Below are positions 2,072 to 44,203 of a stretch of DNA of 64,000 nucleotides, in pieces. Where the stretch lies: assembly GCA_964370475.1 (NCBI GenBank), contig CAYJJI010000001.1, positions 50,363-114,362 on the forward strand, given 5' to 3'. This DNA comes from an uncultured Muribaculaceae bacterium (GTDB lineage: Bacteria; Bacillota_I; Bacilli_A; RF39; UBA660). The notes under the pieces are model-generated. The model was not told where the DNA came from, made no database searches, and saw nothing but the letters and a program-made list of their open reading frames with translations. Made by a program: the position numbers and the translations under genes. Within the stretch, counting starts at the first letter, position 1; each line of letters opens with the position of its first letter.

Positions 2072-3850
2072 TTACTGCGCGAAGGAAAGCACCGAGCGTG
2101 CCGAAGAGAGGCCGTTAGGATATCCAGTGAGGCTGCTGAAATTCCAAACACCAGCACCACTGTCATCATAACAAGACCCACCTCGGTTGAACCAGGAATA
2201 AGTCGAGTTGACAAAGTTAGCTTTATCAGAGCTCCAGTTGGACATCGTAGTGCTATATGGATTTAACTCTACTGTTGCATCTCCATATATACCTCTTGTA
2301 TAATCACTAGAACTTGATCCATTAGCATATGAATCATAGTGCTTTGCATCTGGGGTAGTGGTGAAACCTGAAAGACTTGGATAGAAGTTTCCACTGCTAT
2401 CTTGCATATTCCCCATTACATATTCCCATCTTCCTCCTGCCATATCATATATACCTGTTATATTATGGGTTGTACTTGCTTTTATTCCATTTGCTGTTTC
2501 CCATCTATTACTTGCTGGACATATATTTATCCCTAATTCTGAGACATCTTGACTTGTATCAGATCCTCCACATCCAGTTACTATATCATATCCATTTGAA
2601 CTAGAATAATAATTATTGTTCTCTATTTTTACTGAACACGCTACATCATCTTCACATATTCCGTATTTAGATTGCGATAGATACGCTACCGCTCCCCACT
2701 CAGTATTTTTCATCATATGCATATCTGTGGTTGCATCCAATGAATATGCATTTTTAGTTCTTTGTATATTATAAAACATTGTACTTACATTTGCATTATG
2801 TGCTGAATTGACATTTGGTTTTATAATATAAGTAGTTTCCATGTCATTATTATTTTTTGGGTAATCTCCAGCATCTATAAAAATATTTTGCCATCCTAAC
2901 TCAAACTTCCCTACCCAAAGACCAGCTTGTTCTACACCACCAAAAGTAAATGCAGGATGAATTATTACATCATTATTTTCTATATCAGTATTAACTTTAC
3001 TAATTGGTACAAAGTTTATTTCTATTGATTCTTGTGCATTTACTATTGATGATTTTTTATATTCATATCTTGGAATCCATACATACATCTGCTCTATTGA
3101 TTCCATTGGTATTGTAGTTCCCGGATTTAGTGTTGTAAATGTTGGATCTACTATTACCGCATTCGCCCATTTTGATTCAGCATAACTATACCAAGCATCT
3201 TCATATATATCAGCAACAGTTACAACACCTGTATCTGCTATATTAACTGGTATCATTTTACTATCTAATACTGGATCACTTCCTGCTAAAACAGGATCAG
3301 TATAAGGAGGAAATGCTGCCTCAGCACTAACCGTAATCTTAGCTTGTATCTTTTTATTAGCAGCATTAGAAAGAGTTCCAGATCCATCTATCCACATTCT
3401 AAACATATGTTCATTAACTGCTCCTGGAGCTAAATTATAAGAAGATAAATTATAAGCAGTAGCTCCTTCAATAGTTGCTGTAGTAGTATTGCTTATAATA
3501 CTAGGAGTTAATCCATCAATAGAATATTTAATAAGATCATGACTTATATCAGTAATACTTAATACTTCTAAATTAACACTATATCTAGCATCAACAGTAC
3601 AAGTATTTTCTATTGAAAAGAAATAAGGAGCTTGAAACATTCCTTGATCATCAGTTAAAGGAAAAGAATTAGTTAAATTAATAGTACTACTACTATCCTC
3701 AGCAAAAACAATACTAAAACATCCCGAATCAACTAAATTTTCTCCAGATTGAGTTTCCCTTATCGACCATAATGCATACGAAAAACCAACAGCTATAGCT
3801 ACTGTTAATAATAAAGCAGTACCAATCAATATAATAAATTTAGGTTTCAT
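2072..3850 (-). CDS. Secreted modular protein, paralog 1: Sec signal peptide, unknown N-terminal module A, conserved linker B, C-terminal FGE/SUMF1-like domain
   Basis: Probable start at MKPKF (AGGAG 8 nt upstream; the ORF track has a longer alternative start). Hydrophobic segment ends ..SYA/LW. C-terminal motifs GIYDMAGGRWEYVMGN and WFNRGGSCYDDSGAGVW resemble FGE motifs GxYDMxGNVWEW and RVxRGGSW. Confidence 0.6.
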   Translation of the reverse strand: MKPKFIILIGTALLLTVAIAVGFSYALWSIRETQSGENLVDSGCFSIVFAEDSSSTINLTNSFPLTDDQGMFQAPYFFSIENTCTVDARYSVNLEVLSITDISHDLIKYSIDGLTPSIISNTTTATIEGATAYNLSSYNLAPGAVNEHMFRMWIDGSGTLSNAANKKIQAKITVSAEAAFPPYTDPVLAGSDPVLDSKMIPVNIADTGVVTVADIYEDAWYSYAESKWANAVIVDPTFTTLNPGTTIPMESIEQMYVWIPRYEYKKSSIVNAQESIEINFVPISKVNTDIENNDVIIHPAFTFGGVEQAGLWVGKFELGWQNIFIDAGDYPKNNNDMETTYIIKPNVNSAHNANVSTMFYNIQRTKNAYSLDATTDMHMMKNTEWGAVAYLSQSKYGICEDDVACSVKIENNNYYSSSNGYDIVTGCGGSDTSQDVSELGINICPASNRWETANGIKASTTHNITGIYDMAGGRWEYVMGNMQDSSGNFYPSLSGFTTTPDAKHYDSYANGSSSSDYTRGIYGDATVELNPYSTTMSNWSSDKANFVNSTYSWFNRGGSCYDDSGAGVWNFSSLTGYPNGLSSARSVLSFAQ

Positions 3851-3904
3851 TAAAACACTCCTATCATTAAAATAATTATATAACAAAATAAATATAAGTA
3901 CAAG

Positions 3905-8041: not shown

Positions 8042-9532
8042 TCAGTAAACAGCAGCTACAGATCTAGTAGCATACATTCCATAAGCTATCCCAAAATAAC
8101 TATTAAAAGCAAATACTCCCGCTTCAGTACCTAAATTAGCAGTAGAACCTCTATACATCCAATGATATTCGCCACCAACAAATCCAGCTGAATCACCATT
8201 CCAAGTTATTCTATTCGCTGGAGACATTTCAGTAGTAGCATCACCCGCAATACCTCTTGAATATTCATACATATTGGAAGAATAATTATAAGAATCATAA
8301 TACTTACTAGCAGGAACTGTAGGAAAAGCAGCATATGAATTAACAAAAGTTCCACTAGTACTCTTCATATTAGCCATTACTGCATCATATTTACCACCAG
8401 CCATATCATAAACTCCATAAACATTTCTAGTAGTAGAAGCCTTCGCCCCATTAGTAGTATTCCATCTATAAGTAGAAGGACAAATAGAAAGACCAGAAGC
8501 ATTAACTAAAACAGAAGTATCACTCCCTCCACATCCAGTAATAGTATCTAAATTAGTATTATGGTAACTATTATTCTCAACTTTTAAAGAACATGTCCCA
8601 TTGTCATTACAAACACCATACTTAGATTGAGATAAATACGCAATAGCACCCCATTCAATATTTTTAATCATATGAACATCTGTAGTTGAATCTAAACTAT
8701 AAAGTGTTTTAGCTTCTTGAACTTCCGTAAATAATCCATAATGATTTAAATTAACTACAGGAGCAACATTTGGAATATTCTTTGTATTTGCACCTTGTTC
8801 AAACTTACCTACCCAAAAACCAGATAACTTATCAGTTCCAAATGTAAAAGCAGAATGAGCAGTAGTATTTTTATCAACAAAATAAACATCAATAGCATTT
8901 GCAGAATTTACAATAGAACTAACATCATATCTAAATCTAGGAATCCATACATACATCTGTCCAACAGCACTCATAGGAATAACTGTTCCAGGAGGAGAAT
9001 TAAGATAAGATGTATTAGAAAGAACTATAGCATTCGCCCACTCACTATTCACATAATTGTACCATTCTTCTTCTAAATCAGCTACTTTGATCGTTCCATC
9101 ACTTTCTAAAACAATCGGTAACATTTTCGAATCTAAAAGTGGATCATTTCCATTCAATTCCGTTTCAATATATTTTTTAAAAAAATATATAGAACAATCA
9201 TCATTACCACTAAAAGACATATCTAAAGACCAATTTGATTGATTCCACACAGCTGTAGTAACTCCATCACAAACAAATCTATCAAAATGATAATTAGAAT
9301 TAGCAACAGGAAATTCAGTAGACTTAACACCACTAACATACACATTTAAATTAATAGGAGAATCAACTAACGAATTAATAATTACAGTATTATAATTAAC
9401 TTCAAAATACGCAAAAGAAATTCCCAAAATAGTAAATGCTATTAAAACAAGCAAAGAAAAAATTAAATGCTTTTTAGTATATTTCTTTTTATTATATTCC
9501 TTTGAAACATTAAATTGTTTCATATGAATCAC
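8042..9532 (-). CDS. Secreted modular protein, paralog 2: different N-terminal module, shared linker B, C-terminal FGE/SUMF1-like domain
   Basis: DPLLDSKMLPIV...WYNYVNSEWANAIV linker, then MYVWIPRFRYD..AFTFG..GFWVGKFE..EWGAIAYLSQSKYGVC..ITGCGGSDTS..GVYDMAGGKYDAVMANM..YRGS. Only 6 nt separate it from the pdp stop. Confidence 0.6.
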   Translation of the reverse strand: MIHMKQFNVSKEYNKKKYTKKHLIFSLLVLIAFTILGISFAYFEVNYNTVIINSLVDSPINLNVYVSGVKSTEFPVANSNYHFDRFVCDGVTTAVWNQSNWSLDMSFSGNDDCSIYFFKKYIETELNGNDPLLDSKMLPIVLESDGTIKVADLEEEWYNYVNSEWANAIVLSNTSYLNSPPGTVIPMSAVGQMYVWIPRFRYDVSSIVNSANAIDVYFVDKNTTAHSAFTFGTDKLSGFWVGKFEQGANTKNIPNVAPVVNLNHYGLFTEVQEAKTLYSLDSTTDVHMIKNIEWGAIAYLSQSKYGVCNDNGTCSLKVENNSYHNTNLDTITGCGGSDTSVLVNASGLSICPSTYRWNTTNGAKASTTRNVYGVYDMAGGKYDAVMANMKSTSGTFVNSYAAFPTVPASKYYDSYNYSSNMYEYSRGIAGDATTEMSPANRITWNGDSAGFVGGEYHWMYRGSTANLGTEAGVFAFNSYFGIAYGMYATRSVAAVY

Positions 9533-11192: not shown

Positions 11193-11222
11193 ATAAAAAA
11201 AAGACTTATAAAAGTCTATTTT
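11193..11222. terminator. Hairpin terminator (aagactt-ataa-aagtctt with A/T flanks), copy 1 of an identical 27-bp repeat
   Basis: ataaaaaaaagacttataaaagtctatttt. Identical core at 13539-13568. Confidence 0.55.
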
Positions 11223-11937
11223 AATGATAATATACTCTATTTATAAAAGTTTTAACTTCATCATAAACCATATACTCTAAATCATTTACATTGTCACTAA
11301 AAGGATAAATATAATCTACAACACTTAACTCTTCTAAAGACCTTAAATCATTCAAATTAATATTAGTAATATAAACTAATTCACTTTTATTAAAAAACAA
11401 ATTATATCCACTTACATCAATCATAGTATCAGATTCATTTCCAACAGTAGTAGAAATTTCATAAGCATTAAAATCTTCTATCTTAGAAACATCAACACTA
11501 ACTGAATAATCATCTTTTCTAATAGATTCAAAATATTCAGTAATAATCGGTTCAACTACAACTTTCCCAGCATAACTATCTATTAAGATAGGTATATTAG
11601 AAAAAGCAATACTCTCTTCTCCAGCTAATATATTCCCACCATATACCGTCTCTGACTTTATCAAGTTTTCTTCATAATCATAATACTTAACATTAAAATC
11701 AATTGATTGATTTTTATTAGTATTATTTTCATAAATAAATACTAGTAGATCTTGTTTACTTATCAAATGATAAGTAAACAATACATCACTCTCTATAACC
11801 TCAATGTCCTCAGATTTATAATTATTAGAAACTAATACCTCCAAAGATTCATCAACACCTTTATTTATAAATAAATAAATTGATAAACTAATAAATATTA
11901 TCGACACAAAACTTAAAATCCATATAGCTATTTTCAT
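11221..11937 (-). CDS. Hypothetical membrane-anchored protein (N-terminal TM), encoded directly downstream of the large pilin
   Basis: 238 aa with an N-terminal hydrophobic segment (MKIAIWILSFVSIIFISLSIYLF), then a polar extracellular region. 18 nt from the pilin gene. Confidence 0.4.
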   Translation of the reverse strand: MKIAIWILSFVSIIFISLSIYLFINKGVDESLEVLVSNNYKSEDIEVIESDVLFTYHLISKQDLLVFIYENNTNKNQSIDFNVKYYDYEENLIKSETVYGGNILAGEESIAFSNIPILIDSYAGKVVVEPIITEYFESIRKDDYSVSVDVSKIEDFNAYEISTTVGNESDTMIDVSGYNLFFNKSELVYITNINLNDLRSLEELSVVDYIYPFSDNVNDLEYMVYDEVKTFINRVYYH

Positions 11938-11955: not shown

Positions 11956-13491
11956 TCACTCAACTTCATAACACATACCCTCTGGACTATTTCCAAGACA
12001 TCTTTTAATTTCACATGTATGTTCACCAGTACAAACATCAAATCCCCAATCAGACCAAGGACCATTTTCTCTATAACCACTTCTTTCACAACTAAAAATA
12101 GGTTGATCTGCATTATTAATACAATAAGGATGACTTAAAACATAAAAGCTACCATTATACTGACATCTATTTCCATTATCACATACATATCCTGGTATAG
12201 GAGCTTTCGGATATACATGATGACCACTAATAAAAACAGAAGACCTAGTCCTATACTTAGTTACTATTGATAATTTAAAATAAACTTCAACAACAGTATT
12301 CTCTCTTGGCATAATAAAATTATCACTATTTAATAAAACTCCATTAACATACATTTTATCCACTTCATAATTTACATTCGGAACAAATGATAATGAAATA
12401 TTATTTCCAAATAAAGAAGAATCCTTACTTGAATATGCAACTCCACCATCACCATTAACAACACTAATGGTATATAAAGTTTTATCAACCTTACTTACAT
12501 TAAAAGGCATCTTAGCTTCATTACCTGCATTATCATAAACATATAAAACATAATCCCCATTATCTCTAGTAACAGTAATCAAACCATTATTAGAAAGAAA
12601 AACATTAATATCATTAATTCTTAATGAATTAATACCAGAGCCAACAACGCCATCATTATATTCGATATTTACTTCTCTATCCTTATTTATATACTCACTA
12701 TTATCAACATCTACTTCAATTACTGGAGGAATCTTATCAATCTTAAGTGTTCTAACTTTAGTTTTAAATCCTTCATTAGTTAAAATAGAACCATATATTG
12801 AAATAATAGAATTATCGGCACTAACTAATAACATATTAGAACAATCATCAACATTATTAATATCTACATTAGAAACATCACAAAAATTACTATCACTATA
12901 CTTTGAAGACTTATTTACTCCACCTCCAGTAAATACAATATCAGATCCTTCCTTAACGCTAAATCCATCATCAACATCTAAAACTAATAAAACGTCAGTA
13001 TTAATCCAAACAAATTCAGATAAACCACTAATTAATTCTAATTTATCACCAATAACCCCGTTAACTACCTTATAACCATCAAATTTCAACCCATCTTCAT
13101 CTTCAAGTTCATATTTAACACTACAATCATCAATTACTTCATCAGAAAAAGTAGCAACAATTTGATTCTTAGAAAAAGATATATTTATTGCATTACAACT
13201 CATATCACTACTATCAACAGGATTAATAACTTTATCACTATTAACATCATCAGAACTAATATATCCATCATATACAAGCTGTAAAACAGGTATCGTTATC
13301 GGAGCAGACAAGTTAAGTTCATCTCCCCATTTTTCAGAAGCTATTTCCAAACTTTGTATTTTATTATCTAAAGCCTTTTGCTTTCCTGAATTAGTAATAT
13401 TTATATAACTTGGAATAGCTATCAATAACAAAATACCAAGTATTACTATAGCTACTAATATTTCAACAATTGTAAATCCCTTATATTTCAT
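11956..13491 (-). CDS. Large type IV pilin-like protein (prepilin-type N-terminal cleavage/methylation domain plus ~470-aa C-terminal region with a Cys-rich end)
   Basis: MKYKG/FTIVEILVAIVILGILLLIAIPS is a classic class III signal (G at -1, E at +5). 511 aa. The last ~90 residues contain 10 Cys. Confidence 0.7.
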   Translation of the reverse strand: MKYKGFTIVEILVAIVILGILLLIAIPSYINITNSGKQKALDNKIQSLEIASEKWGDELNLSAPITIPVLQLVYDGYISSDDVNSDKVINPVDSSDMSCNAINISFSKNQIVATFSDEVIDDCSVKYELEDEDGLKFDGYKVVNGVIGDKLELISGLSEFVWINTDVLLVLDVDDGFSVKEGSDIVFTGGGVNKSSKYSDSNFCDVSNVDINNVDDCSNMLLVSADNSIISIYGSILTNEGFKTKVRTLKIDKIPPVIEVDVDNSEYINKDREVNIEYNDGVVGSGINSLRINDINVFLSNNGLITVTRDNGDYVLYVYDNAGNEAKMPFNVSKVDKTLYTISVVNGDGGVAYSSKDSSLFGNNISLSFVPNVNYEVDKMYVNGVLLNSDNFIMPRENTVVEVYFKLSIVTKYRTRSSVFISGHHVYPKAPIPGYVCDNGNRCQYNGSFYVLSHPYCINNADQPIFSCERSGYRENGPWSDWGFDVCTGEHTCEIKRCLGNSPEGMCYEVE

Positions 13492-19277: not shown

Positions 19278-19686
19278 TTTTTAACCCTTTCAAGTAAGAT
19301 TCTAAAATGATACAAGCTGCATAACTATCTATAACTTGCTTACGTTTATTTCTTCTCATATCAACATCTAATAAATATCTCTCAGCTTCCATAGTAGATA
19401 ATCTCTCATCAATAAGTATTACTTCTATCGGAAACTTATCTAGAAGCCATTCTTTAAAATTTAAAGATCTCTCTGAAGCAAAACCCAAAGAATTATCCAT
19501 ATTTTTAGGTAACCCTAATACAAATGTACCAATATCATTTTCCCTAACAATTTTTTCTAATTCAGGAATTAAATCTTCATAAACTTTAAACTTTAATACA
19601 TCAAACTTAGTAGCAATGGTATTACTTCTATCAGTAATAGCCAACCCAATCTTTTTAGTTCCCAAATCCATTCCTAATACTCTCAT
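19267..19686 (-). CDS. ruvX: Putative pre-16S rRNA nuclease / Holliday junction resolvase-like YqgF
   Basis: MRVLGMDLGTKKIGLAITD N-terminus, 139 aa. Confidence 0.8.
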   Translation of the reverse strand: MRVLGMDLGTKKIGLAITDRSNTIATKFDVLKFKVYEDLIPELEKIVRENDIGTFVLGLPKNMDNSLGFASERSLNFKEWLLDKFPIEVILIDERLSTMEAERYLLDVDMRRNKRKQVIDSYAACIILESYLKGLKNER

Positions 19687-19931
19687 TTATTATTCAAATA
19701 CTCCTTTAAAATAGTAGCTATTAATTCTGACCTATCAATACTAGTTATATTTTTTCTAGCACTCTTAAAACTAGAAATAAATCCAGGATCACCACTCATC
19801 ATATAACCAACAATTTGATTAATAGAGTCGTAACCTTTCTCTTCCAGTGCTAAAATAACATCATCTATTATTTTTTCAACATTCTTAGATTTTAACGCAT
19901 CAACATCAAAAAGTATTGTTTCATCATTCAT
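19683..19931 (-). CDS. UPF0297 protein (YrzL/IreB-like)
   Basis: 82 aa containing ALEEKGYDSINQIVGYMMSGDPGFISS. Canonical position upstream of ruvX. Confidence 0.55.
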   Translation of the reverse strand: MNDETILFDVDALKSKNVEKIIDDVILALEEKGYDSINQIVGYMMSGDPGFISSFKSARKNITSIDRSELIATILKEYLNNK

Positions 19932-19967
19932 ATAATACCTCCAAATTTACTATATTTTACCATTTTA

Positions 19968-20723
19968 TCAATAAATAAACAAGTTATTTAAAACTTCCAT
20001 TATTTGATTTCCAAACATAAATGTAATATAAACAGCAGTAATTAAAAACGGTCCAAAAGGTACTTCAGACTCTAACTTAGTATGAATGAAATAAATAGCA
20101 AACGGTAAAGTCAATAAAGAACCAATTATAAGTGCCACAAAAGATAACTGAAATCCTAGTACAACCCCAAATAAGAAAGCTAACTTAACATCTCCAAAAC
20201 CTAAACTCTCTCTTTTAAATACTCTATCGCCAACAAACTTAATTAAATACATAACAAGAAATAATACCACTCCAACTAAAATACTAAATAAAAATTCTTC
20301 AACACCACTAAGGACTAACTTAGTAATTAAAATAGTAACAATCCCTAAAACTAAAGGAATATCCAATATATACAAATATTTGAAATCACTTACATAAGTA
20401 ATTACTAGTATAGAACTGATAACTAAATATATAATCAACCCTTCTAAGGAATTACTCATATAATAAGATAAACCAAATAAAAATCCAGTTAATAATTCAA
20501 TTAAAACATAACTAATAGACAATTTATACCCACACTTACTACATTTTCCTCTTAAAAAAACATAAGAAAAAACTGGTATTAGTTCATACCATGAAAGAGG
20601 CTTATCACACCCCTCACAATGACTACCAGGTTTAACAATTGATTCTCCTCTAGATAATCTATCACCAACTACGTGAAAGAAAGATCCAAAAAACAACCCA
20701 AAAATTCCAAATAAATAAACCAT
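19968..20723 (-). CDS. pilD: Prepilin peptidase (A24 family)
   Basis: 251 aa polytopic membrane protein. N-terminal Cys tetrad (CEGCDKPL...CSKCGYKL) and C-terminal peptidase domain. 9 nt downstream of the pilC-like gene. Confidence 0.7.
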   Translation of the reverse strand: MVYLFGIFGLFFGSFFHVVGDRLSRGESIVKPGSHCEGCDKPLSWYELIPVFSYVFLRGKCSKCGYKLSISYVLIELLTGFLFGLSYYMSNSLEGLIIYLVISSILVITYVSDFKYLYILDIPLVLGIVTILITKLVLSGVEEFLFSILVGVVLFLVMYLIKFVGDRVFKRESLGFGDVKLAFLFGVVLGFQLSFVALIIGSLLTLPFAIYFIHTKLESEVPFGPFLITAVYITFMFGNQIMEVLNNLFIY

Positions 20724-20732
20724 ATTATCCCC

Positions 20733-22262
20733 CTACATATTAATTGTACCATACATTCCATACATTGGCATTACAACCGCCATCAAAATAGCTCCAACAA
20801 CTACTGCCAAACCAGCAATCATAACCGGTTCTATAATAGCTTTAAAACTAGTAACTATCGACTTATGTTGTATTTGAAAATGCTCACTAACTTTTTCCAT
20901 CATTGAAGCAAGTTCTCCAGTCGATTCCCCAGTAACAATCATGAAATAAGCTGCACTAGGAATAGCCCAGTGATCTTTAAAAGTTTCAGATATCTTACCA
21001 CCAGTAGATATATTATTAATAGTTTCAAACATAATTTCTTTATAAACTTCATTAGAAGTTATCCTACTTAAAATATCCATACTATCAGTAATATAAACAC
21101 TATTCTTTAACAATGACGAAAACGTCTTAGTAAAAATAGTTATCTCATTAAATATTATTAAATCCTTAATTACAGGAATCTTCATTACCATTATTTGCAT
21201 TGCTTTTCTAAAAGCTTTAACTTTCTTATAAGAAAACACAAATACTAAAACAACTAAAATAGTAACAGCTATATATATTAAGTAATTAGCTTGCAAATTT
21301 TCCGATAAATTTAATACTAACAATGTAATCCCAGTAACAGGAGCACCCATTGATTCATAAATACCTTCAAACTCTGGCATTATAAATAACATTATAAATA
21401 TAACAATACCTACAGCAAATACACTTATTATCGCCGGATAAGTCATAGCACTAATCATATCTTTTTTAGTTTTATCAATCTCAGAATAATAATTAGCCAT
21501 ATCATCTAAAGTAGATTGTAAATCTCCAGTAGCTTCAGCTGCTTTTAACATATTAATTAATAAACTAGGAAACATTCCACCTTGCTTAGTTAAAGCATTA
21601 GAAAAACTCTCTCCCATAGTAAGTTCATAAACGATAGCATTAAAAATACTTTTTCTCGCAGTATCTTTACCAGTTTGTTGAGCTAAAATTCTCATAGAGT
21701 CAGTTAATGGTATACCACTTCTTACATAAGTAGATAATTGTGTTAACCAAAAAATTAAATCTTTACTTTTCATCTTACGAGGAAATAAACCACTTTCGCC
21801 ATAAACAAAATTAATCCAATCACTAGTTTCAATACTAAAAACTTCATAACCTTCATTAACTAAAAAAGTATTAACATCTAACTTAGACATCCCAGTAAAA
21901 TTATCAGTAACAAGTTTACCTTTATAATCAAGTGCAGTATATCTAAATATTGTTGGTTTAGTTAATCTCTTAGCATCTTCACCAGTTAACTCAGCATTAA
22001 GCTTAGCTTTCTTCTCTTCTAACTTAGCAAGTACTCTAGGACTAATTTTAGTCTTACGATCTACCACAGCTTCTTTTTTTTCAGTTTTTATTATGTTCTT
22101 AGTACCTTTATAAGTTTTATCAACTGCACTAGAAGAAACATAATATAATTTAGCTAAAGGAGAAAATAAAACTTTTAATCCTAGAAAAGCATATCTAAAT
22201 ATATCAAAAAAACTTAATATAAAATTAATTGGCATAAACAATACATTACTCTTCTTAGCCAT
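20733..22262 (-). CDS. pilC: Type IV pilus / type II secretion platform protein (GspF/PilC family) with ~120-aa N-terminal extension
   Basis: Two T2SSF-like repeats. Characteristic YTALDYKGKLVTDNFTGMSKLDVNTFLVNEGYEVFSIE N-domain. 509 aa. Confidence 0.7.
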   Translation of the reverse strand: MAKKSNVLFMPINFILSFFDIFRYAFLGLKVLFSPLAKLYYVSSSAVDKTYKGTKNIIKTEKKEAVVDRKTKISPRVLAKLEEKKAKLNAELTGEDAKRLTKPTIFRYTALDYKGKLVTDNFTGMSKLDVNTFLVNEGYEVFSIETSDWINFVYGESGLFPRKMKSKDLIFWLTQLSTYVRSGIPLTDSMRILAQQTGKDTARKSIFNAIVYELTMGESFSNALTKQGGMFPSLLINMLKAAEATGDLQSTLDDMANYYSEIDKTKKDMISAMTYPAIISVFAVGIVIFIMLFIMPEFEGIYESMGAPVTGITLLVLNLSENLQANYLIYIAVTILVVLVFVFSYKKVKAFRKAMQIMVMKIPVIKDLIIFNEITIFTKTFSSLLKNSVYITDSMDILSRITSNEVYKEIMFETINNISTGGKISETFKDHWAIPSAAYFMIVTGESTGELASMMEKVSEHFQIQHKSIVTSFKAIIEPVMIAGLAVVVGAILMAVVMPMYGMYGTINM

Positions 22263-22349
22263 AACAACACCTCACTATTTTAATTAATTATAACACAATA
22301 AAAAAACAATGTACATATCAGAAAAAATAAAAAGAAGATAAAATCTTCT

Positions 22350-24041
22350 TTATAAAATAATACTCATAACAGATCTAGTAGAAGTATATAAAGCAGCAGC
22401 TCCATCACCTACATAAAATGCCCAAATACCAGCATAAATATCATTACCAGCTCTTCCTCCTCTTACAAACCAAGGAGCCATTTTATATATAAAATAAGCA
22501 TAATCAGTATTCCAATTTGACATATTTACTGAAGTTGCATCAAGTTCTTTTATCCCATCTCCACTAATTGCCCTATGATAGTCAAGTTCATAAGTACCAT
22601 AAGTATATGAATCATAATACTTAGAAGCAGGAGCTACAGAAAAACCAGAACTCCAAGTATTGAAGTTTCCAAACTCATTTACCATATTAGCCATTACATA
22701 TTCCCATTTACCACCGGCCATATCATAAACACCAGTAACATTAGCTGTAGTACTAGCTTTAACTCCATTTGCTGTTGACCATCTATTTTCTAACGGACAT
22801 ATTTCTATACCACTTAAAGCAACACCAGTAGAAGTATCAACACCACCACAACCAGTAACAGATGCATACGACGTAGAATTGAAATAACTATTATTTTCTA
22901 CCTTTCCACCACAAGTTCCATCAGCACTACAAATACCATATTTTGATTGTGATAAATATGCTACTGCTCCCCATTCCATATTTTTTATAATGTGAACATC
23001 TGATTCTTCATCCAAACCATAAGTATCCATAGTATTATTAACATTATCATATAATACAGAAATAGATGCATTACTAAAAGAATTAATATTAGGTACTATT
23101 TTATTACCAACACCTTGTTCAAACTTACCTATCCAAAAACCAGGTAACTCCTCTTCTCCAAACGTAAAAGCAGGATGAGCAGAAGCAGAAATATCAACAA
23201 AAGTTAAATCAACAGCAGTATCAGCATCAAATACAGACTCCTCAACGTAAGAATATCTAGGAATCCATACATACATTTGTTCTATTTTATCAAGAGGTAT
23301 TTCCACTCCAATATATAAATTAGTATATGTCGGATCAACTATAACAGCATTCGCCCATTCACTATTTTCATAAGAATACCATTTTTTTTCTACATCAGCA
23401 ACAATAACACTACCATCATCATTAATAATTACAGGTAACATCTTAGAATCTAATATCGGATCAGCACCAGCTAAAATTTCATCATCATAAGGTAAAAATG
23501 TCGAATTAGCAACTACTGAAATTTTAGCATCAACAACCTTGTTAGCAGAATTACTCATAGTTGCAGAAGAATCAATCCACATTCTAAATTCATGCGTAAC
23601 TGACTCATTAGGTTCCAAAATATAATCATCAAAGCTATAAGCTTTAGCAGAAGAATTTATGGCATCCACTTCCTCATTACTACTAACTATAACCGGATCA
23701 TCATAATCCAGTGCTCCTTTAATTAAACTATGACTTAAAGTAGTTGTATTTAAAACTTCTAAATTAACTAAATAAGATGTGTTATTAGAACAAGTATTAG
23801 TAACAGTAAACACATAAGGAGTAGATCTCATTCCATCAATATCACTAATAGGATAAGCATTACTCAAATTTATCAGAGATTCAGAATCTTCTGAATAATT
23901 AATCGACAAACAACCGCTATTAACAATACCATCACCAGATTGTTGATTATCACTTACCCACAAAGCAAATGAAAAACTTATAGTCAAGACGCATACTAAC
24001 AGTACACCAATTACAAACAAAAATATCATTTTAACATTCAT
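22350..24041 (-). CDS. Secreted modular protein, paralog 3: signal peptide, module A, linker B, FGE/SUMF1-like domain
   Basis: Module A (SGCLSINYSEDSESLINLSNAYPISD...TNTCSNNTSYLVNLEVL...EFRMWIDSSATMSNSANK), linker (DPILDSKMLPVI..WYSYENSEWANAVIVD), FGE-like motifs (GVYDMAGGKWEYVMANM, PWFVRGG). AGGAT ribosome-binding site 8 nt upstream of the ATG. Confidence 0.6.
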   Translation of the reverse strand: MNVKMIFLFVIGVLLVCVLTISFSFALWVSDNQQSGDGIVNSGCLSINYSEDSESLINLSNAYPISDIDGMRSTPYVFTVTNTCSNNTSYLVNLEVLNTTTLSHSLIKGALDYDDPVIVSSNEEVDAINSSAKAYSFDDYILEPNESVTHEFRMWIDSSATMSNSANKVVDAKISVVANSTFLPYDDEILAGADPILDSKMLPVIINDDGSVIVADVEKKWYSYENSEWANAVIVDPTYTNLYIGVEIPLDKIEQMYVWIPRYSYVEESVFDADTAVDLTFVDISASAHPAFTFGEEELPGFWIGKFEQGVGNKIVPNINSFSNASISVLYDNVNNTMDTYGLDEESDVHIIKNMEWGAVAYLSQSKYGICSADGTCGGKVENNSYFNSTSYASVTGCGGVDTSTGVALSGIEICPLENRWSTANGVKASTTANVTGVYDMAGGKWEYVMANMVNEFGNFNTWSSGFSVAPASKYYDSYTYGTYELDYHRAISGDGIKELDATSVNMSNWNTDYAYFIYKMAPWFVRGGRAGNDIYAGIWAFYVGDGAAALYTSTRSVMSIIL

Positions 24042-24121: not shown

Positions 24122-24352
24122 ATGTTTCCATATCAAATTGCAAAAAGTGGTTTAACTTTATCAAAAGTTATTACTGGTATCTCCAAAAGCTTATCAATAG
24201 CTAATCAAGTAATACCTATTTACCAACAAAGCAAACCAGTAATTGACAAAGCAAAAGAAATGTTAAGTGGAATATCTAAAAAAGAACCACAAAAAAAAGA
24301 AATAATCAAAAATGATATTCCTTCTTCCAATAACAATCCAACATTTTTCTAA
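24122..24352 (+). CDS. Small ORF (76 aa), divergently oriented from paralog 3; uncertain
   Basis: GAGGTGA 4 nt before the ATG and a TATAAT-like box upstream. Its 3' end overlaps the convergent trmK stop by 4 nt. Confidence 0.3.
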   Translation: MFPYQIAKSGLTLSKVITGISKSLSIANQVIPIYQQSKPVIDKAKEMLSGISKKEPQKKEIIKNDIPSSNNNPTFF

Positions 24353-27854: not shown

Positions 27855-29174
27855 CTAAATTTTCTGCTTTTTTATCATTTTTCGCCCTAAAATAACTCCG
27901 AAAATCAAAAATAAATATAAAATTGTATAATCTTGACTCTTATAAGTATCAGGAATAACAACCAATTTCTCACTAATCAGCTTCTTTGATTTAACTAAGC
28001 CATCAGTTCTAACTTTAACTAAGTAATCATCAACTAAAGAAAAACCTTCATTACTAACATGTCTAATAATGTAATCACCATAACCAAGAATACAAACATC
28101 ACTTTCACTAAGTTCCATTCTACTTAATTCATTAAATTCATCATCAAGAATAGAAAAAATACTAACCGTATCAACTACATCATCATTATATTTATTTAAT
28201 GCAATTTCATTAGTAATAAATTTAATATCTAATTCAATTTCAGTATCAAGTCCATCAACAATCTCAAATTCCACAACTTCATCATTTCTTAAAAAACCTA
28301 TATCTCTTGATTTCTCTTTTATTATATAATCCCCTGGACTTAATAATATTTCAAAAACTTCATTACTATTAAAGTCCATAATCTTATTATTATTCTTATA
28401 TAAACTATAATCAATTCCATCACTACACTCTAAACAAATAACTTCATCTTTAACATAATTAATATTTAACTTCCCTACTAATAATGAAAAATTATATACA
28501 ATTTCTCTTTCATCTAATTTACCAGGAACATATATGTAATTATCTCCATTACTAAACATATTAGCTTCTTCAACATAATTGTTATAATTACTCTTTAATA
28601 TAATATCTTCTATATTAGTTTCTATTATTAGTTCATTATCATCAATAATCCCATTACTTGCATTAAAATTATTCAATACATTATTAGTATCAATTAAAAT
28701 ATTCTTTTCATTATATTCTAAAACATCACTATCAAATATAGGATTTAAAGAATCATTTAAAACTAGTTCTAACAATTCATTAATTTCATCTTCATACTTA
28801 ATAACAATATCACCACTACTATCAATGAAATTAACATCATAAAAATAATCCCATATCAAATACTGAGTAATAAAATACCACTTTTGAGCAGTATGATTTT
28901 CATAATTATATCCATAATACATTAACTTATTAATATATTCTACATCATCATAATCTTTAACATAATTATTAAAATACATATAATCATAATTACTACTATA
29001 TACAACTTGATCATCAATATATATAAACTTAACTTTTAAATCAATTCCCTCAACTCTTACATAAGACCCTCTTATCTCACTACCTATATCAACTTCTAAA
29101 GCACCACTTATAATTGAAAAACTAAAAAACATCATTAAAGTAAATAAACATTTAATCATTAAACCTCCTTTCAC
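27855..29174 (-). CDS. Hypothetical secreted protein with signal peptide and C-terminal TM anchor plus basic tail
   Basis: 439 aa, Y/N/D-rich, ending IPDTYKSQDYTILYLFLIFGVILGRKMIKKQKI. Confidence 0.4.
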   Translation of the reverse strand: MKGGLMIKCLFTLMMFFSFSIISGALEVDIGSEIRGSYVRVEGIDLKVKFIYIDDQVVYSSNYDYMYFNNYVKDYDDVEYINKLMYYGYNYENHTAQKWYFITQYLIWDYFYDVNFIDSSGDIVIKYEDEINELLELVLNDSLNPIFDSDVLEYNEKNILIDTNNVLNNFNASNGIIDDNELIIETNIEDIILKSNYNNYVEEANMFSNGDNYIYVPGKLDEREIVYNFSLLVGKLNINYVKDEVICLECSDGIDYSLYKNNNKIMDFNSNEVFEILLSPGDYIIKEKSRDIGFLRNDEVVEFEIVDGLDTEIELDIKFITNEIALNKYNDDVVDTVSIFSILDDEFNELSRMELSESDVCILGYGDYIIRHVSNEGFSLVDDYLVKVRTDGLVKSKKLISEKLVVIPDTYKSQDYTILYLFLIFGVILGRKMIKKQKI

Positions 29175-29346: not shown

Positions 29347-30738
29347 TTATCCACCAATATTCCCAAAAGCCCATTCATCTAAAAATAAATCATCAAACTC
29401 TAAAGCATATATAGCAAAATAATCATCTACTGAAACAATTTTATAACTTACTCCTTTTATAACTATACTATTATAACCACTATTACTTTCAAATGCCCTA
29501 CTTCCAATATAAGCAACACTATCTGGAATAACCAATTCAGTTAATTCATTATGTCCAAAAGCCAACTCACCTATAGTTTTTAAATTCGCACCTAAAGTTA
29601 ATTGAGTTAAAGAATTAGACTCAAAAGCACCATAACCAATCTCTATAACCCTATCAGGAATAACTAGTTCTGTTAAGTGATTATAAGCAAAAGCACTATT
29701 ACCAATCTCTATAACCCTATCAGGAATAACTAATTCAGTTAATTGATTATAAGCAAAAGCATAATCTCCTATAGTAGTTACATTCTCCCCTAAAGTTAAT
29801 TGAGTTATAAGATTAGCACCAAAAGCCGCATCATTTATTTCTACAACACTATTAGGTATAACCACTTCTGTTAATTTATTCCCAAGAAATGCACCAAAAA
29901 CAGCTCCACTATCCACATCATAATAACCGTCAATTACTTGCAATGTTTCAGGTAATATAGCACTAGTAATATCAAATCCAATCATATTAGTTGTATCTTT
30001 AACAAAAGCTTCTGGTCCTAAAACAGTTACTGGTTTACCATTTATTTCACAAGGAATAACTACATCTTTAGGTCCAGCATCAGTATATCCATCTATAGTT
30101 ACAGAATTACTAGTTTCAGTATAAGTAAAATAACTATCGTCCGTCGGCGTTAAACCTCTAGCTTCATAATCACTTAAACAAATTTCTAAATCACTAAGAA
30201 CTGGAACAGCTACAATCACTATCTTAGAATTAACAATCTTATTTTGAGAATTCTCTAAAGTAGCAGAATAATCTACCCACATTCTAAAATCATGACTTCT
30301 ACTCTCACCAGCATTTAATTTAAATGTATCTAAAAGATACGAAGTAGAATTTGCAATAGTAGATTCAACTACTGATTTATTATTTAAAGTCTCTGGATTA
30401 TTAGTATCTAATACACCACTAATTAATGAATGTCCTAAAGTAGTACTATCCAAAACTTCAATATTCACCTGGTAACTAGCAGCTAAATCACAAGTATTAG
30501 ATATAGTAAAAGAAAACGGATCAGTTAAAATCCCCTCACTATCAGGTATTGGAAAAGTATTTGTAATATTTATATGTTCAGTATCTTCAGTAAAAGTAAT
30601 ATCAAAACACCCTGTACTAACAAGGTTGTTATCAGTTTGTGTTGCTGTAAGCATCCAAACTGCAAAAGTAACACCACTAATTATTAAAGCTACTAACGTA
30701 ATACCCATACCAATCATTAATAATAATCTCTTATTCAT
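29347..30738 (-). CDS. Secreted modular protein, paralog 4: signal peptide, module A, then BspA-type leucine-rich repeats (no FGE domain)
   Basis: Module A (STGCFDITFTEDTEHINITNTFPIPD...SNTCDLAASYQVNIEVL...DFRMWVDYSATLENSQNK). C-terminal repeats of the form ELVIPDRVIEIGNSAFAYNHLT. GAGGG ribosome-binding site. Confidence 0.55.
   Translation of the reverse strand: MNKRLLLMIGMGITLVALIISGVTFAVWMLTATQTDNNLVSTGCFDITFTEDTEHINITNTFPIPDSEGILTDPFSFTISNTCDLAASYQVNIEVLDSTTLGHSLISGVLDTNNPETLNNKSVVESTIANSTSYLLDTFKLNAGESRSHDFRMWVDYSATLENSQNKIVNSKIVIVAVPVLSDLEICLSDYEARGLTPTDDSYFTYTETSNSVTIDGYTDAGPKDVVIPCEINGKPVTVLGPEAFVKDTTNMIGFDITSAILPETLQVIDGYYDVDSGAVFGAFLGNKLTEVVIPNSVVEINDAAFGANLITQLTLGENVTTIGDYAFAYNQLTELVIPDRVIEIGNSAFAYNHLTELVIPDRVIEIGYGAFESNSLTQLTLGANLKTIGELAFGHNELTELVIPDSVAYIGSRAFESNSGYNSIVIKGVSYKIVSVDDYFAIYALEFDDLFLDEWAFGNIGG
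29636..29767. repeat. Two tandem 66-bp direct repeats (~88% identical) encoding consecutive 22-aa LRR units; further partial copies nearby (29591-29632, 29789-29830)
   Basis: ccaatctctataaccctatcaggaataact(a/g)(a/g)ttc(a/t)gtta(a/g)(t/g)tgattataagcaaaagc occurs twice in tandem. Confidence 0.7.
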
Positions 30739-30789: not shown

Positions 30790-30817
30790 AGAAAAAAGAA
30801 TAGACATAATCTATTCT
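30790..30817 (-). terminator. Rho-independent terminator of alaS (agaataga-cataa-tctattct, overlapping the stop codon)
   Basis: 8-bp stem followed by a T-run on the minus strand. Confidence 0.45.
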
Positions 30818-32556
30818 AATACAGCTTTAATTCTTCTAACACCAGCTGAAGATGCTTCTTCTTTTTTTATTTTAAAAATACCCAAATCACCAATAGACTC
30901 AACATGAGGTCCACCGCATAATTCCTTAGATATATCACCTATATAATAAACATTTACTACATCTGGATATCTATCTATAAACATACATTCAGCTCCAGTA
31001 GATAAAGCTTCTTCTTTAGACATTTCTTTTTTAGTAACTTTCAATCCTTCACTAATCCATTTATTAACTAATTCTTCTACTTTAGATTTTTCTTCATCAG
31101 TTAACTTATGATCACATGCAAAGTCAAAACGAAGTCTCTCACTAGTGATATTACTTCCCTTTTGATGTACACTAGGATCTACTACTACCTTTAAAGCAGC
31201 ATTAAGTAAGTGAGTAGCAGTATGATATTTAACTTCCATATCACCATTACCTGCTAAACCACCCTTAAACTTCTCCTTAGCTCCAGCTCTTGATAATTCT
31301 TGATGAGCTCTAAACTTATCATTAAATCCCTTAATATCTACAGATAAATTATATTCACTAGCTACTTCTTCAGTTAACTCTATCGGAAAACCATAAGTAT
31401 CATATAACTTAAAAGCTAAAGTAGCATCTATTTCATTAATATTATTAATATTTTTAGATAACTCTCTAAGTCCCTTTTCTAAAGTTCTATTAAATTTAAC
31501 TTTTTCATTAGACAAAACTTCATACACAACGTTTTCATTAATATCTAATTGAACATAATACTTCTTATAATTATTAACTATAATCTTAGCTAATCTAATA
31601 TCAAAATCACTATTAATATCAATATTTAACTTCTTAGCATGTCTAATCATTCTTCTAATTAATCTTCTTAGTATATATCCTTGATCAGTATTAGAAGGTT
31701 TAATCATAGCACTATCACTACTAATAAATACAGCAGTTCTTATATGATCAGCAATAATTCTCATACTACTTTCATTACCTTCATAACTAAATCCAGAAAT
31801 ATTTTCTATTTCATTAATAACATCACTCCATATAGAAGTTTTATAATTATCATTAACACCTTCTATAAAAGAAACAATTCTCTCATAACCCATCCCAGTA
31901 TCTACATTTTTACTAGGTAATTCAGTTATCGATCCATCAGGATGTTTAAAATATTCCATAAACACATTATTCCATACTTCAACCCAATTAGAATCCTCTG
32001 GATCAAAAACAGTCGGAACATCATCGCCACGATATACAAATATCTCAGTATCCGATCCACAAGGACCAGACTCTCCAGCTATCCAAAAATTATCTTCAAC
32101 TCCTAAAAAAACTATTCTATCATCACTAATACCTAAAGACTTCCATACATTAGCAGAAACTAAATCACGAGGTATATCTTCATTACCTTCAAAACAACTT
32201 ACAGCTATTTTAGAAACAGGAATATTTAAGACATCGGTTAAAAACTCAAAACTATATTTAATAGATTCTTCTTTAAAATAATCCCCTAAACTCCAATTAC
32301 CTAACATCTCAAAAAACGTATGATGCGTAGCATCACCAATAACATCTAAATCATTAGTTCTAATACACATTTGATAATCTACAAGCCTTTTACCATAAGG
32401 ATGTTCCTCACCCATTAAAAATGGTATTAAAGGCTGCATACCAGCTGTATTAAATAATACAGATGGATCATTCAAAGGTACAACAGGTGCACTAGGTATT
32501 TGCTTATGTCCTTTACTAACAAAAAAATCAATATACATATCTTTTATATTTTTCAT
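30811..32556 (-). CDS. alaS: Alanyl-tRNA synthetase, unusually short (catalytic plus editing domains, no C-Ala domain)
   Basis: FNTAGMQPL, KRLVDYQMCIRTNDLDVIGDATHHTFFEMLGNWSLGDYFK, editing-domain HTATHLL...CGGPHV. True start MKNIKD with GGAGG 5 nt upstream; the ORF track uses an upstream TTG. Confidence 0.8.
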   Translation of the reverse strand: MKNIKDMYIDFFVSKGHKQIPSAPVVPLNDPSVLFNTAGMQPLIPFLMGEEHPYGKRLVDYQMCIRTNDLDVIGDATHHTFFEMLGNWSLGDYFKEESIKYSFEFLTDVLNIPVSKIAVSCFEGNEDIPRDLVSANVWKSLGISDDRIVFLGVEDNFWIAGESGPCGSDTEIFVYRGDDVPTVFDPEDSNWVEVWNNVFMEYFKHPDGSITELPSKNVDTGMGYERIVSFIEGVNDNYKTSIWSDVINEIENISGFSYEGNESSMRIIADHIRTAVFISSDSAMIKPSNTDQGYILRRLIRRMIRHAKKLNIDINSDFDIRLAKIIVNNYKKYYVQLDINENVVYEVLSNEKVKFNRTLEKGLRELSKNINNINEIDATLAFKLYDTYGFPIELTEEVASEYNLSVDIKGFNDKFRAHQELSRAGAKEKFKGGLAGNGDMEVKYHTATHLLNAALKVVVDPSVHQKGSNITSERLRFDFACDHKLTDEEKSKVEELVNKWISEGLKVTKKEMSKEEALSTGAECMFIDRYPDVVNVYYIGDISKELCGGPHVESIGDLGIFKIKKEEASSAGVRRIKAVLE

Positions 32557-32790
32557 AATTTCCTCCAACAAAAAAAGAATAACACCAAGGAGTCTTACGA
32601 CGGTACCATCCTTTACTTAACTTAATTTAATATAACGGTTTAAACCGACTAATCTCCAAAGATAGCTATTTCTTTATTTAAATTATTTCTTCTCACCTAA
32701 CAGAAACTCTCTTGAAATTCAAATAAATACTTGGTCTTTTTCAACAATTAATAAACAAATTATATCATAAACATAACAATTAATCAAATA
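32557..32790 (-). promoter_or_regulatory. Candidate T-box leader upstream of alaS
   Basis: Minus strand contains AAAGGATGGTACCGTCG (T-box consensus AANNNGGGTGGNACCGCG) about 40 nt upstream of the ribosome-binding site. AGAGAG (GA motif) and GCT-containing loop candidates lie further upstream. No convincing terminator helix was found. Confidence 0.45.
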
Positions 32791-39988: not shown

Positions 39989-41023
39989 TTACATATTCTT
40001 AAGTTTTCTAAATCTTTTACTTGGTAAAGTGTAACAGACATCATAATCCATATAATAATCCTTAACACTATCATTATAATAATCTAAAACTTCACAAGTA
40101 TCAGTAGATATTTTATAATTCGCTATTGAAGCTAAAGCATAAGATAAACAAAAAGCCATTCCAACATAAGCAATCGCTAACATAGATTGTGTAAATGCAT
40201 CATGATCAGCTACCAATTCATTTAAAGACTCATCATAATCATAAAATCTATGATTAAATATTACTTCTTCATCCATATTATCAGGCACTTCATCACTATA
40301 TTCCGTAAACTTTTCTACAGAATCAAGATCCACAAATTCTTCGATAAAAGAAAAATCATCAGTAGCAGTAAAATCAACCAACATATCTACATTATCTAAT
40401 ATTTTACTATTTAAAACTCTATAATTAATTACATCTCTTTGATACTTACCATCTACATTTATCCAAGCAGAAAAATAACTAATATCACTTACAGCTGTTT
40501 TAGAAGAAGAACCATTTTCATTATATATTCTACCTTCTTTCATATAAAAATCATCTGAACTATCAGTTACTAAACTAATATCACCATCACTATAAGTATT
40601 AGTAATATAACTAACATCATCGTTATAGTCAACATTTCTACTAATTTTAAACGAAGATTCACTAAAACCAGCTAAGTAAACAGTAAACGATGCAACAATT
40701 GCAACAATTACACCTGCATTTACCAAAGGTAAAGTTCTTTTTTTAATAATAGTACTTCTATTTGCCAAATAATGTTCATCTATTTCATGAGACTCAGTTA
40801 TCATATCAATTTCATTTTGAATACGTTCATACTCACTTATTAATTCACTTTTTTCATTAGTAAGTTTATATTCAACAGATGATTGATATTCCCCACAAAT
40901 ACAATTAGACAATTCATTTTCCAATTCATCCAAACGCTTCTCAATAATATCTCGTTCTTTAAGTAAAATAACTATTTTATTTTTTTCATACTCCACTAAT
41001 TTTTTATAATCTTTTTTATTCAT
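39989..41023 (-). CDS. Membrane protein, paralog B: cytoplasmic coiled-coil N-terminus, TM, ~170-aa extracytoplasmic region, second TM, Tyr-rich cytoplasmic tail
   Basis: 344 aa. Paralogous to the adjacent 325-aa protein (shared segments around the first TM ..YLAGFSESS.. vs ..YLLGFSDSF.. and tail ..LPSKRFRKL vs ..PSSKRLERF). Confidence 0.35.
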   Translation of the reverse strand: MNKKDYKKLVEYEKNKIVILLKERDIIEKRLDELENELSNCICGEYQSSVEYKLTNEKSELISEYERIQNEIDMITESHEIDEHYLANRSTIIKKRTLPLVNAGVIVAIVASFTVYLAGFSESSFKISRNVDYNDDVSYITNTYSDGDISLVTDSSDDFYMKEGRIYNENGSSSKTAVSDISYFSAWINVDGKYQRDVINYRVLNSKILDNVDMLVDFTATDDFSFIEEFVDLDSVEKFTEYSDEVPDNMDEEVIFNHRFYDYDESLNELVADHDAFTQSMLAIAYVGMAFCLSYALASIANYKISTDTCEVLDYYNDSVKDYYMDYDVCYTLPSKRFRKLKNM

Positions 41024-42001
41024 TTATTTTATTCCTCCAAATCTTTCCAACCTTTTAGAACTAGGTTTATATTCTTCATTATAATTCTCCTTATAACAAT
41101 TCTTATATTTATCAATATCATATTTCATATAAAGCAATTCAAGATAAGAACTTTTATGCATAAGTTTTACTATATTAATTAAATTAGAATAAAGACAACT
41201 ATTTAAAACAGTAAACGAAAATATTAAAAATATATTCAATAAAGTAGTTTTTTCTAAAACTAGCGAAGTATTAGATTCATCCATCTCAAAATCAGTTTGA
41301 TTATAGACTATATGTTGAGACATATTATCAGGAACATCTTCTTGAAATATATAAGAATTATTTAAAATTTTAATACTTTCTATCAATTGTATTATCTTTT
41401 CTATATCATCACTAATAGTAGCTTCTATCAACATATCAATATCAATTCCAGTAACATCATATTCAGTATATTCCCTTTGATATCCGTTATCAACTTGTTC
41501 CCATTTACCATAATGTTTAAGAACATCTTTTGAAACGTATTGATTACCACTACTATCGTATATAAGCTCATCTACATAAGAATATTGACTTGGATAAGTA
41601 ACAACATTAGAAACCTTCCCATCCACATATTCATACACTTTTTTATCAACACTATCATTTTTCGATATTTTTCTATTAATATTTAAAAACGAATCACTAA
41701 ATCCCAATAAATAAGTACTAATTGCCAGTGCACAAGTAGTAATAAAAGCAGCAATATATATAGGAGTTTTTTTTCTAATTACAACCCTCCTATTATAATT
41801 AGATATAGCATTATCTATTTGGTGTAAATCATCTATTTTTTTAATACTATCATCTAAATTTTTAATTGTTTCGTACATATCATTATTAGAATCATTAAAC
41901 CCATTATCAAGTTCATTCATTAATCCTTCTCTAATAATTAACATTGATTCCTTATTTTTATTCTCTTGTTTAATAACTTTCTTGTACATACAAGCCTCCA
42001 T
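41024..42001 (-). CDS. Membrane protein, paralog A of the same two-TM family
   Basis: 325 aa with the same architecture. Tail YKNCYKENYNEEYKPSSKRLERF. Confidence 0.35.
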   Translation of the reverse strand: MEACMYKKVIKQENKNKESMLIIREGLMNELDNGFNDSNNDMYETIKNLDDSIKKIDDLHQIDNAISNYNRRVVIRKKTPIYIAAFITTCALAISTYLLGFSDSFLNINRKISKNDSVDKKVYEYVDGKVSNVVTYPSQYSYVDELIYDSSGNQYVSKDVLKHYGKWEQVDNGYQREYTEYDVTGIDIDMLIEATISDDIEKIIQLIESIKILNNSYIFQEDVPDNMSQHIVYNQTDFEMDESNTSLVLEKTTLLNIFLIFSFTVLNSCLYSNLINIVKLMHKSSYLELLYMKYDIDKYKNCYKENYNEEYKPSSKRLERFGGIK

Positions 42002-42075
42002 TAAAATACTATACTACTATAGACTTAAAAAAACAATAGCTAAATAAAACATAAAAAAAACAAGTAATAACTTGT

Positions 42076-44195: not shown

Positions 44196-44203
44196 AAACC
44201 TCC

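Follow-up and report, generated by a model that had tools for sequence, protein, structure and literature searches.

An intact pilC-pilD module with its own promoter in an uncultured RF39 bacterium, probably belonging to a genomically dispersed type IV filament system

The genes pilC and pilD, which encode the platform protein and the prepilin peptidase of a type IV filament system, lie side by side in a stretch of 64,000 nucleotides (nt) from an uncultured bacterium of the RF39 lineage (contig CAYJJI010000001.1, positions 50,363 to 114,362); this 64-kilobase (kb) stretch as a whole is referred to below as the window. The pair is most probably an intact module, expressed from a promoter of its own, of a type IV filament system whose genes are dispersed around the genome and whose extension ATPase, PilB, would be encoded outside the window. 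Every type IV filament system is built around four core proteins (a pilin, a peptidase, an ATPase and a platform), and the genes of type IVa pili are often scattered (PMC10191384). The comparisons below rest on relatives (loci L001-L019) whose PilC is 52-77% identical to that of the window and which were taken from species-representative genomes and metagenome assemblies. The elements at and around the pair, with lengths in amino acids (aa), are the following.

19683-19931, minus strand: ireB (yrzL), PF06135, first gene of the ireB-ruvX-DUF1292-mltG series, 36 nt after pilD
19968-20723, minus strand: pilD, prepilin peptidase of the bifunctional type, 251 aa, PF06750 (5e-31) and PF01478 (5e-11)
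20733-22262, minus strand: pilC, type IV filament platform protein, 509 aa, two PF00482 domains (E 1.4e-50)
21951-22262, minus strand: N-terminal extension of PilC, residues 1-104, predicted as helix 7-61, a variable K/E-rich linker and helix 75-93
22287-22315, minus strand: predicted pilC promoter, with -35 TGTACA (22315-22310) and extended -10 TGTGTTATAAT (22297-22287)
22322-22351, minus strand: hairpin resembling an intrinsic terminator, with a 9-base-pair A/U-rich stem, a UUU loop and a U-tract, directly 3' of the paralog 3 stop codon
22350-24041, minus strand: paralog 3, a surface protein of 563 aa with no Pfam or NCBIfam match, a lineage-specific insertion
24122-24352, plus strand: small conserved gene, 76 aa, weakly YqfQ-like, C-terminus NPxFF[Q], with a strong ribosome-binding site (GAGGTGATTT-ATG)

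Two features identify PilC as a platform protein: a single polypeptide carries both T2SSF (IPR018076) domains, and its alignment spans positions 1-397 of the GspF model. It aligns over the full length of the NCBIfam GspF, HofC and PilC models, starting from residue ~105, and it has three strong transmembrane segments (Kyte-Doolittle peaks at 268-303, 322-351 and 468-507) which form long helices in the AlphaFold2 (AF2) model. The protein is full length, and alignments place every invariant residue of the family in it. The family itself is large, with 4739 PilC homologues at E<=1e-20, and thousands of homologues occur in gut and rumen metagenomes. The unusual N-terminal extension that an earlier note on this DNA had put at about 120 residues proves to be somewhat shorter, at ~104 aa, with position 1 of the GspF model aligning to residue 106. 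AF2 predicts for it, at modest confidence, a long, moderately hydrophobic helix followed by a second, shorter one, and its hydropathy is borderline for a transmembrane segment. The extension is conserved across the family of relatives (alignments A1 and A3), has no counterpart in proteobacterial PilC and is thus specific to the lineage; it is also less constrained than the core of the protein.

PilD has the N-terminal, presumably Zn-binding domain with paired CxxC motifs (CEGC at 36 and CSKC at 61, contributing C36, C39, C61 and C64). In its Peptidase_A24 (PF01478) membrane domain, GFGDVKL at residue 175 fits GxGDxKL, the motif of the presumed second catalytic aspartate, and Asp113, in the motif SDF, is a candidate for the first, with Asp121 nearby.

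The ratios of nonsynonymous to synonymous substitution (dN/dS) between the window and L017 are 0.21 for pilC (0.16 for its core and 0.46 for the extension), 0.25 for pilD, 0.27 for ruvX and 0.10 for ireB, values which are approximate because dS is high (0.6-1.5). They point to purifying selection on pilC and pilD and to a pair that is intact, and they speak against the possibility, raised earlier, that the pair is a decaying second copy.

The arrangement of genes in the relatives shows that pilC-pilD belongs to the chromosomal backbone at this phylogenetic depth. The pair stays together in all relatives recovered, with pilD always beginning 2-13 nt after pilC or, in L015, overlapping it by 16 nt. 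The order dnaG-sigA-trmK, then an antisense gene of 80-99 aa, then pilC-pilD is found in L007, L009/L010, L011, L015/L016 and L019, and the closest relative, L017 (PilC 76% identical), continues downstream as pilC-pilD-ireB-ruvX-DUF1292-mltG. L019 is collinear with the window over ~20 kb, from recD2 through dnaG-sigA-trmK and pilC-pilD to ireB and on to greA-tig; paralog 3 is absent from it. The array of paralog 3, pilC and pilD had been read as an insertion into a conserved trmK/yrzL backbone, but because the relatives share this synteny and L019 does without paralog 3, pilC-pilD is itself backbone and paralog 3 the only insertion. In Bacillus subtilis trmK (yqfN) and yrzL are not known to be neighbours, so the trmK/yrzL site would be the junction of two synteny blocks, not a single conserved one. 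The small gene at 24122-24352 is part of the same picture: its product aligns with the 80-99-aa antisense reading frames in front of pilC in L007, L009, L011, L012, L015 and L002, and also with one in L018, and although a Tad locus replaces trmK in L012 and L018, the gene is still found there immediately before pilC and divergent from it. The L009 homologue of this gene gives a weak match to PF14181.

The four open reading frames of the array, 22350-24041 (563 aa), 20733-22262 (509 aa), 19968-20723 (251 aa) and 19683-19931 (82 aa), are all on the minus strand, and their coordinates give gaps of exactly 87, 9 and 36 nt, as had been reported. Pfam matches place TrmK upstream of them and IreB, RuvX, DUF1292 and YceG/MltG downstream. 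It had also been reported that no terminator-like hairpin lies between these genes and that a single transcript could run from paralog 3 into the housekeeping block. The former statement holds for the junctions of pilC with pilD and of pilD with ireB, where folding reveals no significant structure or hairpin, but it fails for the gap between paralog 3 and pilC. There the sequence AAAGAAGAU-UUU-AUCUUCUUU followed by UUAUUUUUU forms a hairpin at 22351-22322, and minimum free energy folding of the 98-nt gap sequence is better than that of shuffled sequences (z -2.8). The consensus terminator scanner demands at least 3 G-C pairs per stem, and it missed this hairpin because the stem has fewer than 3.

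Between that hairpin and the pilC start lies the top-scoring promoter match of the region (TGTACA-17-TATAAT with TG, 10/12), which is followed by a strong ribosome-binding site (GTGAGGTG at 22275-22268). The promoter is shared: an extended -10 element (TGnTATAAT or TATACT) stands 5' of pilC in 9 of 9 relatives (L017, L007, L009, L011, L012, L015, L002, L003 and L005), in most of them ~25-40 nt before the pilC start and farther away in L002 and L003, where starts were taken from the longest open reading frames. Since a terminator and a conserved pilC promoter lie between them, paralog 3 is predicted to be a transcription unit of its own, terminated separately, and pilC to head another. The idea of one transcript thus loses its first member, which is in any case absent from L019. 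What survives of it is that co-transcription of pilC and pilD, and read-through into ireB-ruvX, are plausible: pilD has no terminator behind it, so transcription from the pilC promoter may continue into ireB. The pilD-ireB junction is arranged likewise in L017 and L019.

A platform protein and a peptidase require an ATPase if they are to be understood as parts of a filament machine, and the statement that no pilus ATPase is present here apart from an enzyme of the CpaF/TadA type is borne out. Searches of the window by tblastn with two proteobacterial and two lineage PilB sequences returned a weak match to CpaF or nothing, with no further gene and no remnant, and the sole T2SSE protein of the window is the TadA/CpaF-type protein at 44204-45520. 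The relatives supply what the window lacks. In L012 a T2SSE gene of 446 aa lies 2.7 kb past pilD on the opposite strand; its product scores 488 bits against NCBIfam GspE (from model position 105), 473 bits against PilB (from position 176) and 270 against ComGA, and by these scores it would be an ATPase of the PilB/GspE class without the N1 domain. The ATPases of this type in the relatives are short throughout (423-446 aa). In L018 pilB is convergent with pilD, 8 nt away, while L013/L014 have a solitary pilB beside a 149-aa reading frame, radC and mreC; the same metagenome has pilC-pilD behind trmK on a separate contig. Identity within the PilB family is 65-88% for the best 120 of at least 8000 matches, and PilB and PilC matches share a longest contig of equal size in six cases (12294, 14822, 32089, 7872, 110119 and 56198). 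The layouts of L012, L018 and L013/L014 suggest that a split system is the normal state of this lineage. Because relatives carry a conserved PilB-type ATPase at other loci, in L013/L014 as a solitary gene, the ATPase of this genome is most likely encoded outside the window, which was one of the two alternatives offered by the earlier note. The place where such a gene might have been expected can be located as follows.

52982-53113, strand not applicable: synteny break at the site where L013/L014 keep their solitary pilB, with no pilB or remnant of it in the window

Gene order in the window agrees with that of L013 from obg as far as 52514-52981, and the two part exactly where pilB would sit.

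The other alternative of that note, that the platform and the peptidase serve the large pilin encoded in the window, gains support, as far as the peptidase is concerned, from the N-terminus of this protein.

11956-13491, minus strand: modular type IV pilin, 511 aa, PF07963 and TIGR02532, with leader MKYKG and mature N-terminus FTIVE

The sequence MKYKG|FTIVEILVAIV fits a class III signal, with glycine at -1, a hydrophobic residue at +1 and glutamate at +5, and motif scans of the window in six frames found one classical prepilin only, this one. It is thus the sole predicted substrate of PilD in the window. As a filament component it is more like a minor or tip pilin than a major pilin. The gene directly downstream (11221-11937) encodes a bitopic membrane protein of 238 aa that matches no family. 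Among the relative loci L001-L017 that were scanned, none has a pilin gene closer than 10 kb to pilCD or pilB.

The window also contains the core of a second filament system, of the Tad type.

42515-46310, minus strand: Tad-type (type IVc) core, comprising a TadZ/CpaE-like gene (45513-46310), CpaF/TadA (44204-45520), TadB (43197-44195) and TadC (42515-43204)

The orthologues of TadZ, CpaF, TadB and TadC in L018 are 53%, 64%, 34% and 37% identical to these. The Tad locus of the window (39989-46310) follows directly after obg, and behind its core are three unknown proteins of 113, 325 and 344 aa, the last two of which are paralogous coiled-coil/transmembrane proteins. Neither motif scans nor tblastn with the Flp and TadE sequences of L018 and L013, both of which carry these genes, found Flp or TadE in the window, and the locus has no TadV or other peptidase of its own; no TadV or A24 peptidase belongs to any of the Tad loci seen. 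Two relatives, L012 and L018, have a Tad core (TadZ-CpaF-TadB-TadC) immediately upstream of pilC-pilD, the order in L018 being Flp-TadE-x-TadZ-CpaF-TadB-TadC-x, then the small antisense gene, pilC-pilD and the convergent pilB. These two loci (L018:9485-19972 and L012:5324-15877) are compact superclusters of Tad, PilC-PilD and PilB with one A24 peptidase, two ATPases and two types of platform.

The remaining member of the array, paralog 3, appears to be a surface protein that combines a TasA/camelysin-like part with a fold of the C-type-lectin and formylglycine-generating-enzyme (FGE)-sulfatase kind, and not a prepilin. Its AF2 model (pLDDT 89.5) begins with a helix, continues with a beta-sandwich (42-180) and ends in a large C-domain (~190-563). 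The top Foldseek match of the C-domain is TaqVP (5vf4, E 6e-10), a variable protein of a diversity-generating retroelement (DGR) with the C-type-lectin/FGE fold, and the N-domain gives a weak match to the TasA-like archaeal bundling pilin 7ueg (probability 0.87). The hydrophobic N-terminal helix ends in FALW and resembles a SipW/TasA-type signal, the motif scans found no prepilin signal with G-1 and E+5 in the protein, and FALW, YALW, FAVW and FAYF, all of the form [FY]A[YLV][FW] that closes SipW-type signals, can be read in sequences of the family. No SipW-type peptidase was found in the window. A hidden Markov model of the N-domain of the family matches, weakly (1e-4), an M73-positive protein of L005, and a profile search of the PDB with the paralog family returned nothing significant. 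Homologues of paralog 3 carry PF03781 (one of them), PF12389 (the full-length P0359) or a pilin N-terminus; several of them have the C-module on the classical pilin N-terminus MKKGFTLxELLAV, and genuine type IV pilins of relatives that bear the lectin-fold module are P0342, P0345, P0346 and P0360.

Paralog 3 has paralogs at 2072-3886 and 8042-9532 and shares its N-domain with a leucine-rich repeat (LRR) protein at 29347-30738, which makes four family members in 64 kb, and for that reason its adjacency to pilC is likely to be due to chance. A protein sharing this N-domain sits between pilD and pilB in L012. The four genes (2072-3886, 8042-9532, 22350-24041 and 29347-30738) are scattered among housekeeping operons, and their C-domains are of the lectin/FGE fold or of the BspA-type LRR kind. 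Beside the LRR paralog, between alaS and dnaG, a 439-aa protein with a match to the thioester domain (27855-29174) is a putative adhesin. Between the first paralog and sepF, 1276-2071 on the minus strand is an 800-nt non-coding stretch with several GC-rich hairpins and a GC content of ~36%, against 27% for the window. It includes, at 1590-1745, a 46-codon fragment similar to the last 40 residues of the paralogs; 79 nt of it match the 3' end of 2072-3886 at 77% DNA identity. By its looks it could be the template repeat of a DGR or what is left of a gene. An active DGR was considered and rejected because the substitutions relative to that 3' end are not specific to adenine but spread over G, C, T and A (17, 11, 13 and 13 differences), and because no reverse transcriptase is among the window reading frames scanned.

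Several known systems invite comparison with the PilC-PilD module. The type IVa pili of monoderms such as Streptococcus sanguinis and Clostridium share with the present lineage an ATPase of the PilB/GspE class (seen in the relatives), a two-domain PilC, a PilD of the bifunctional type and modular pilins with grafted adhesive domains (PMC10191384, PMC9934059). The genes here, in contrast, are dispersed and not gathered in a single pil cluster, none of the components is seen to have PilM/N/O as a neighbour, an N-terminal extension of ~104 aa is added to PilC, and the PilB of the relatives lacks the N1 domain. The Com pilus (ComGA-ComGG with ComC) offers a parallel in its short ATPase, and in that the present system may likewise be a minimal machine of four core proteins. 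It differs in that PilC scores only 149 bits against ComGB (NF041012), below both the cutoff of 240 and the 250 bits for GspF, in that the ATPase of the relatives prefers GspE to ComGA by the scores given above, and in that there is no comG-type operon or set of neighbours here and the pilin is a modular protein of 511 aa.

The Tad, or type IVc, system is represented in the window by its own core, which in relatives abuts pilC-pilD together with the Flp and TadE genes, but the PilC of the window has its two T2SSF domains in one chain, and its PilD has the methylase-type N-domain that is missing in TadV (PMC10191384). Gram-negative type IVa systems, with pilBCD and distant pilins, resemble the present one in having assembly genes scattered round the chromosome; there, however, pilB, pilC and pilD are usually together, whereas here pilB is apart from pilC-pilD in several lineages. 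For paralog 3 the relevant comparison is with binders of the DGR TaqVP, FGE-sulfatase and C-type-lectin fold, to which it is linked by the match of its C-domain and by the homologue with PF03781, and from which it is set apart by the lack of a reverse transcriptase in the window and the absence of adenine-specific differences in the fragment at 1590-1745.

Several observations count against the interpretation of the pair as a working part of a dispersed system. The PilB of this particular genome was not itself seen in a search that covered the 64-kb window, and the site of the L013/L014 type holds other genes here, among them an 884-aa glycosidase-like gene. There is no major pilin, PilM/N/O or Flp/TadE within the window, and the absence of PilM/N/O and of a nearby major pilin had been noted correctly before. 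The high dS, moreover, limits the precision of the dN/dS values. Some of these observations would be expected if PilB had been lost from this genome, with PilD retained only to process Tad prepilins or others, and pilC left over, either non-functional or re-purposed; since the Tad locus would also have lost its Flp/TadE genes, an erosion of filament systems is conceivable. This explanation is nevertheless judged unlikely, because pilC is full length with its invariant residues kept, its core is at least as constrained as ruvX, its promoter and ribosome-binding site are conserved, and the identity within the PilB family, as seen in its best 120 matches, argues for general retention.

Another way of accounting for the missing motor would be to pair PilC with the CpaF/TadA-type ATPase 20 kb away, which would make of Tad and PilCD a hybrid machine served by one peptidase. 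The position of the Tad core in L012 and L018, and the lack of an A24 peptidase of its own in every Tad locus seen, could be taken in its favour. It is very improbable, however, given that in all the loci CpaF comes with a split platform for itself, TadB/TadC, that the compact loci of L012 and L018 also carry a PilB-type ATPase near pilD, and that known platforms pair with their cognate class of ATPase (PMC10191384). Only the sharing of PilD is plausible. Equally little weight can be given to the proposal that paralog 3, pilC, pilD and yrzL are one newly inserted operon that links paralog 3 in function to the pilus genes. In its favour, these genes run in one direction and are separated by short gaps, the protein with the paralog 3 N-domain comes right after pilD in L012, and relatives have the C-module of paralog 3 joined to genuine pilin N-termini. 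Against this stand the terminator and the conserved promoter between paralog 3 and pilC, the absence of paralog 3 from the collinear L019, its want of a G-1/E+5 signal, the abundance of its family in the window, which makes adjacency by chance likely, and the ancestral position of pilCD at this site.

If the pair is indeed a module of a dispersed system, its operation may be pictured as follows. The conserved extended -10 promoter would drive pilC-pilD, and the transcript may continue into ireB-ruvX. PilD would cleave and methylate the modular pilin at 11956-13491, together with other pilins encoded elsewhere. It would probably process Flp/TadE-type pilins as well, as the Tad loci abutting pilC-pilD in relatives suggest; because no Tad locus seen has a TadV, PilD probably serves Flp/TadE there. 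PilC would be driven by a short PilB without N1, presumably of 423-446 aa, encoded outside the window, and the modular pilins would display adhesive modules. Paralog 3 would be a separately transcribed, adhesin-like surface protein inserted upstream in this lineage only. A bolder extension of this scheme, which must be considered speculative and rather doubtful, is that the Tad machine and a minimal PilB-PilC machine both derive from one supercluster like that of L018 and share PilD, that the 104-aa amphipathic extension of PilC and the N1-less PilB together replace a scaffold of the PilM/N/O type, and that the lectin-fold module is carried on pilins or on TasA-like proteins.

The general features of the window can be stated briefly. 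Its GC content is ~27%, and nearly all of its genes are on the minus strand. A scan with Rfam gave a single match, the ribosomal protein L21 leader (RF00559) at 49362-49430 on the minus strand upstream of rplU, and ARAGORN found no tRNA and no tmRNA in the window. The alanyl-tRNA synthetase reading frame at 30811-32571 is only 586 aa long; it has a TTG start and contains the catalytic and SAD domains, and it appears to be without the C-terminal C-Ala/DHHA1 part of the typical bacterial enzyme. A search of the literature on RF39 together with pilC/pilD found nothing specific to this lineage.

Taken at its proper size, the finding is most probably of an ordinary dispersed type IV filament system in a poorly studied clade of uncultured gut and rumen Bacilli, and not of a new machine that works without an ATPase; the appearance of a platform without a motor would be an effect of viewing 64 kb of a dispersed system. 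A modest by-product is a map of type IV filament gene arrangement in a large clade of uncultured, host-associated Bacilli, which displays a conserved PilC extension, a PilB without the N1 domain, one PilD probably shared by two filament systems, and a lectin-fold adhesin module that passes from pilins to TasA-like proteins or the other way. Studies of adhesion or DNA uptake in the clade could take their direction from these points.

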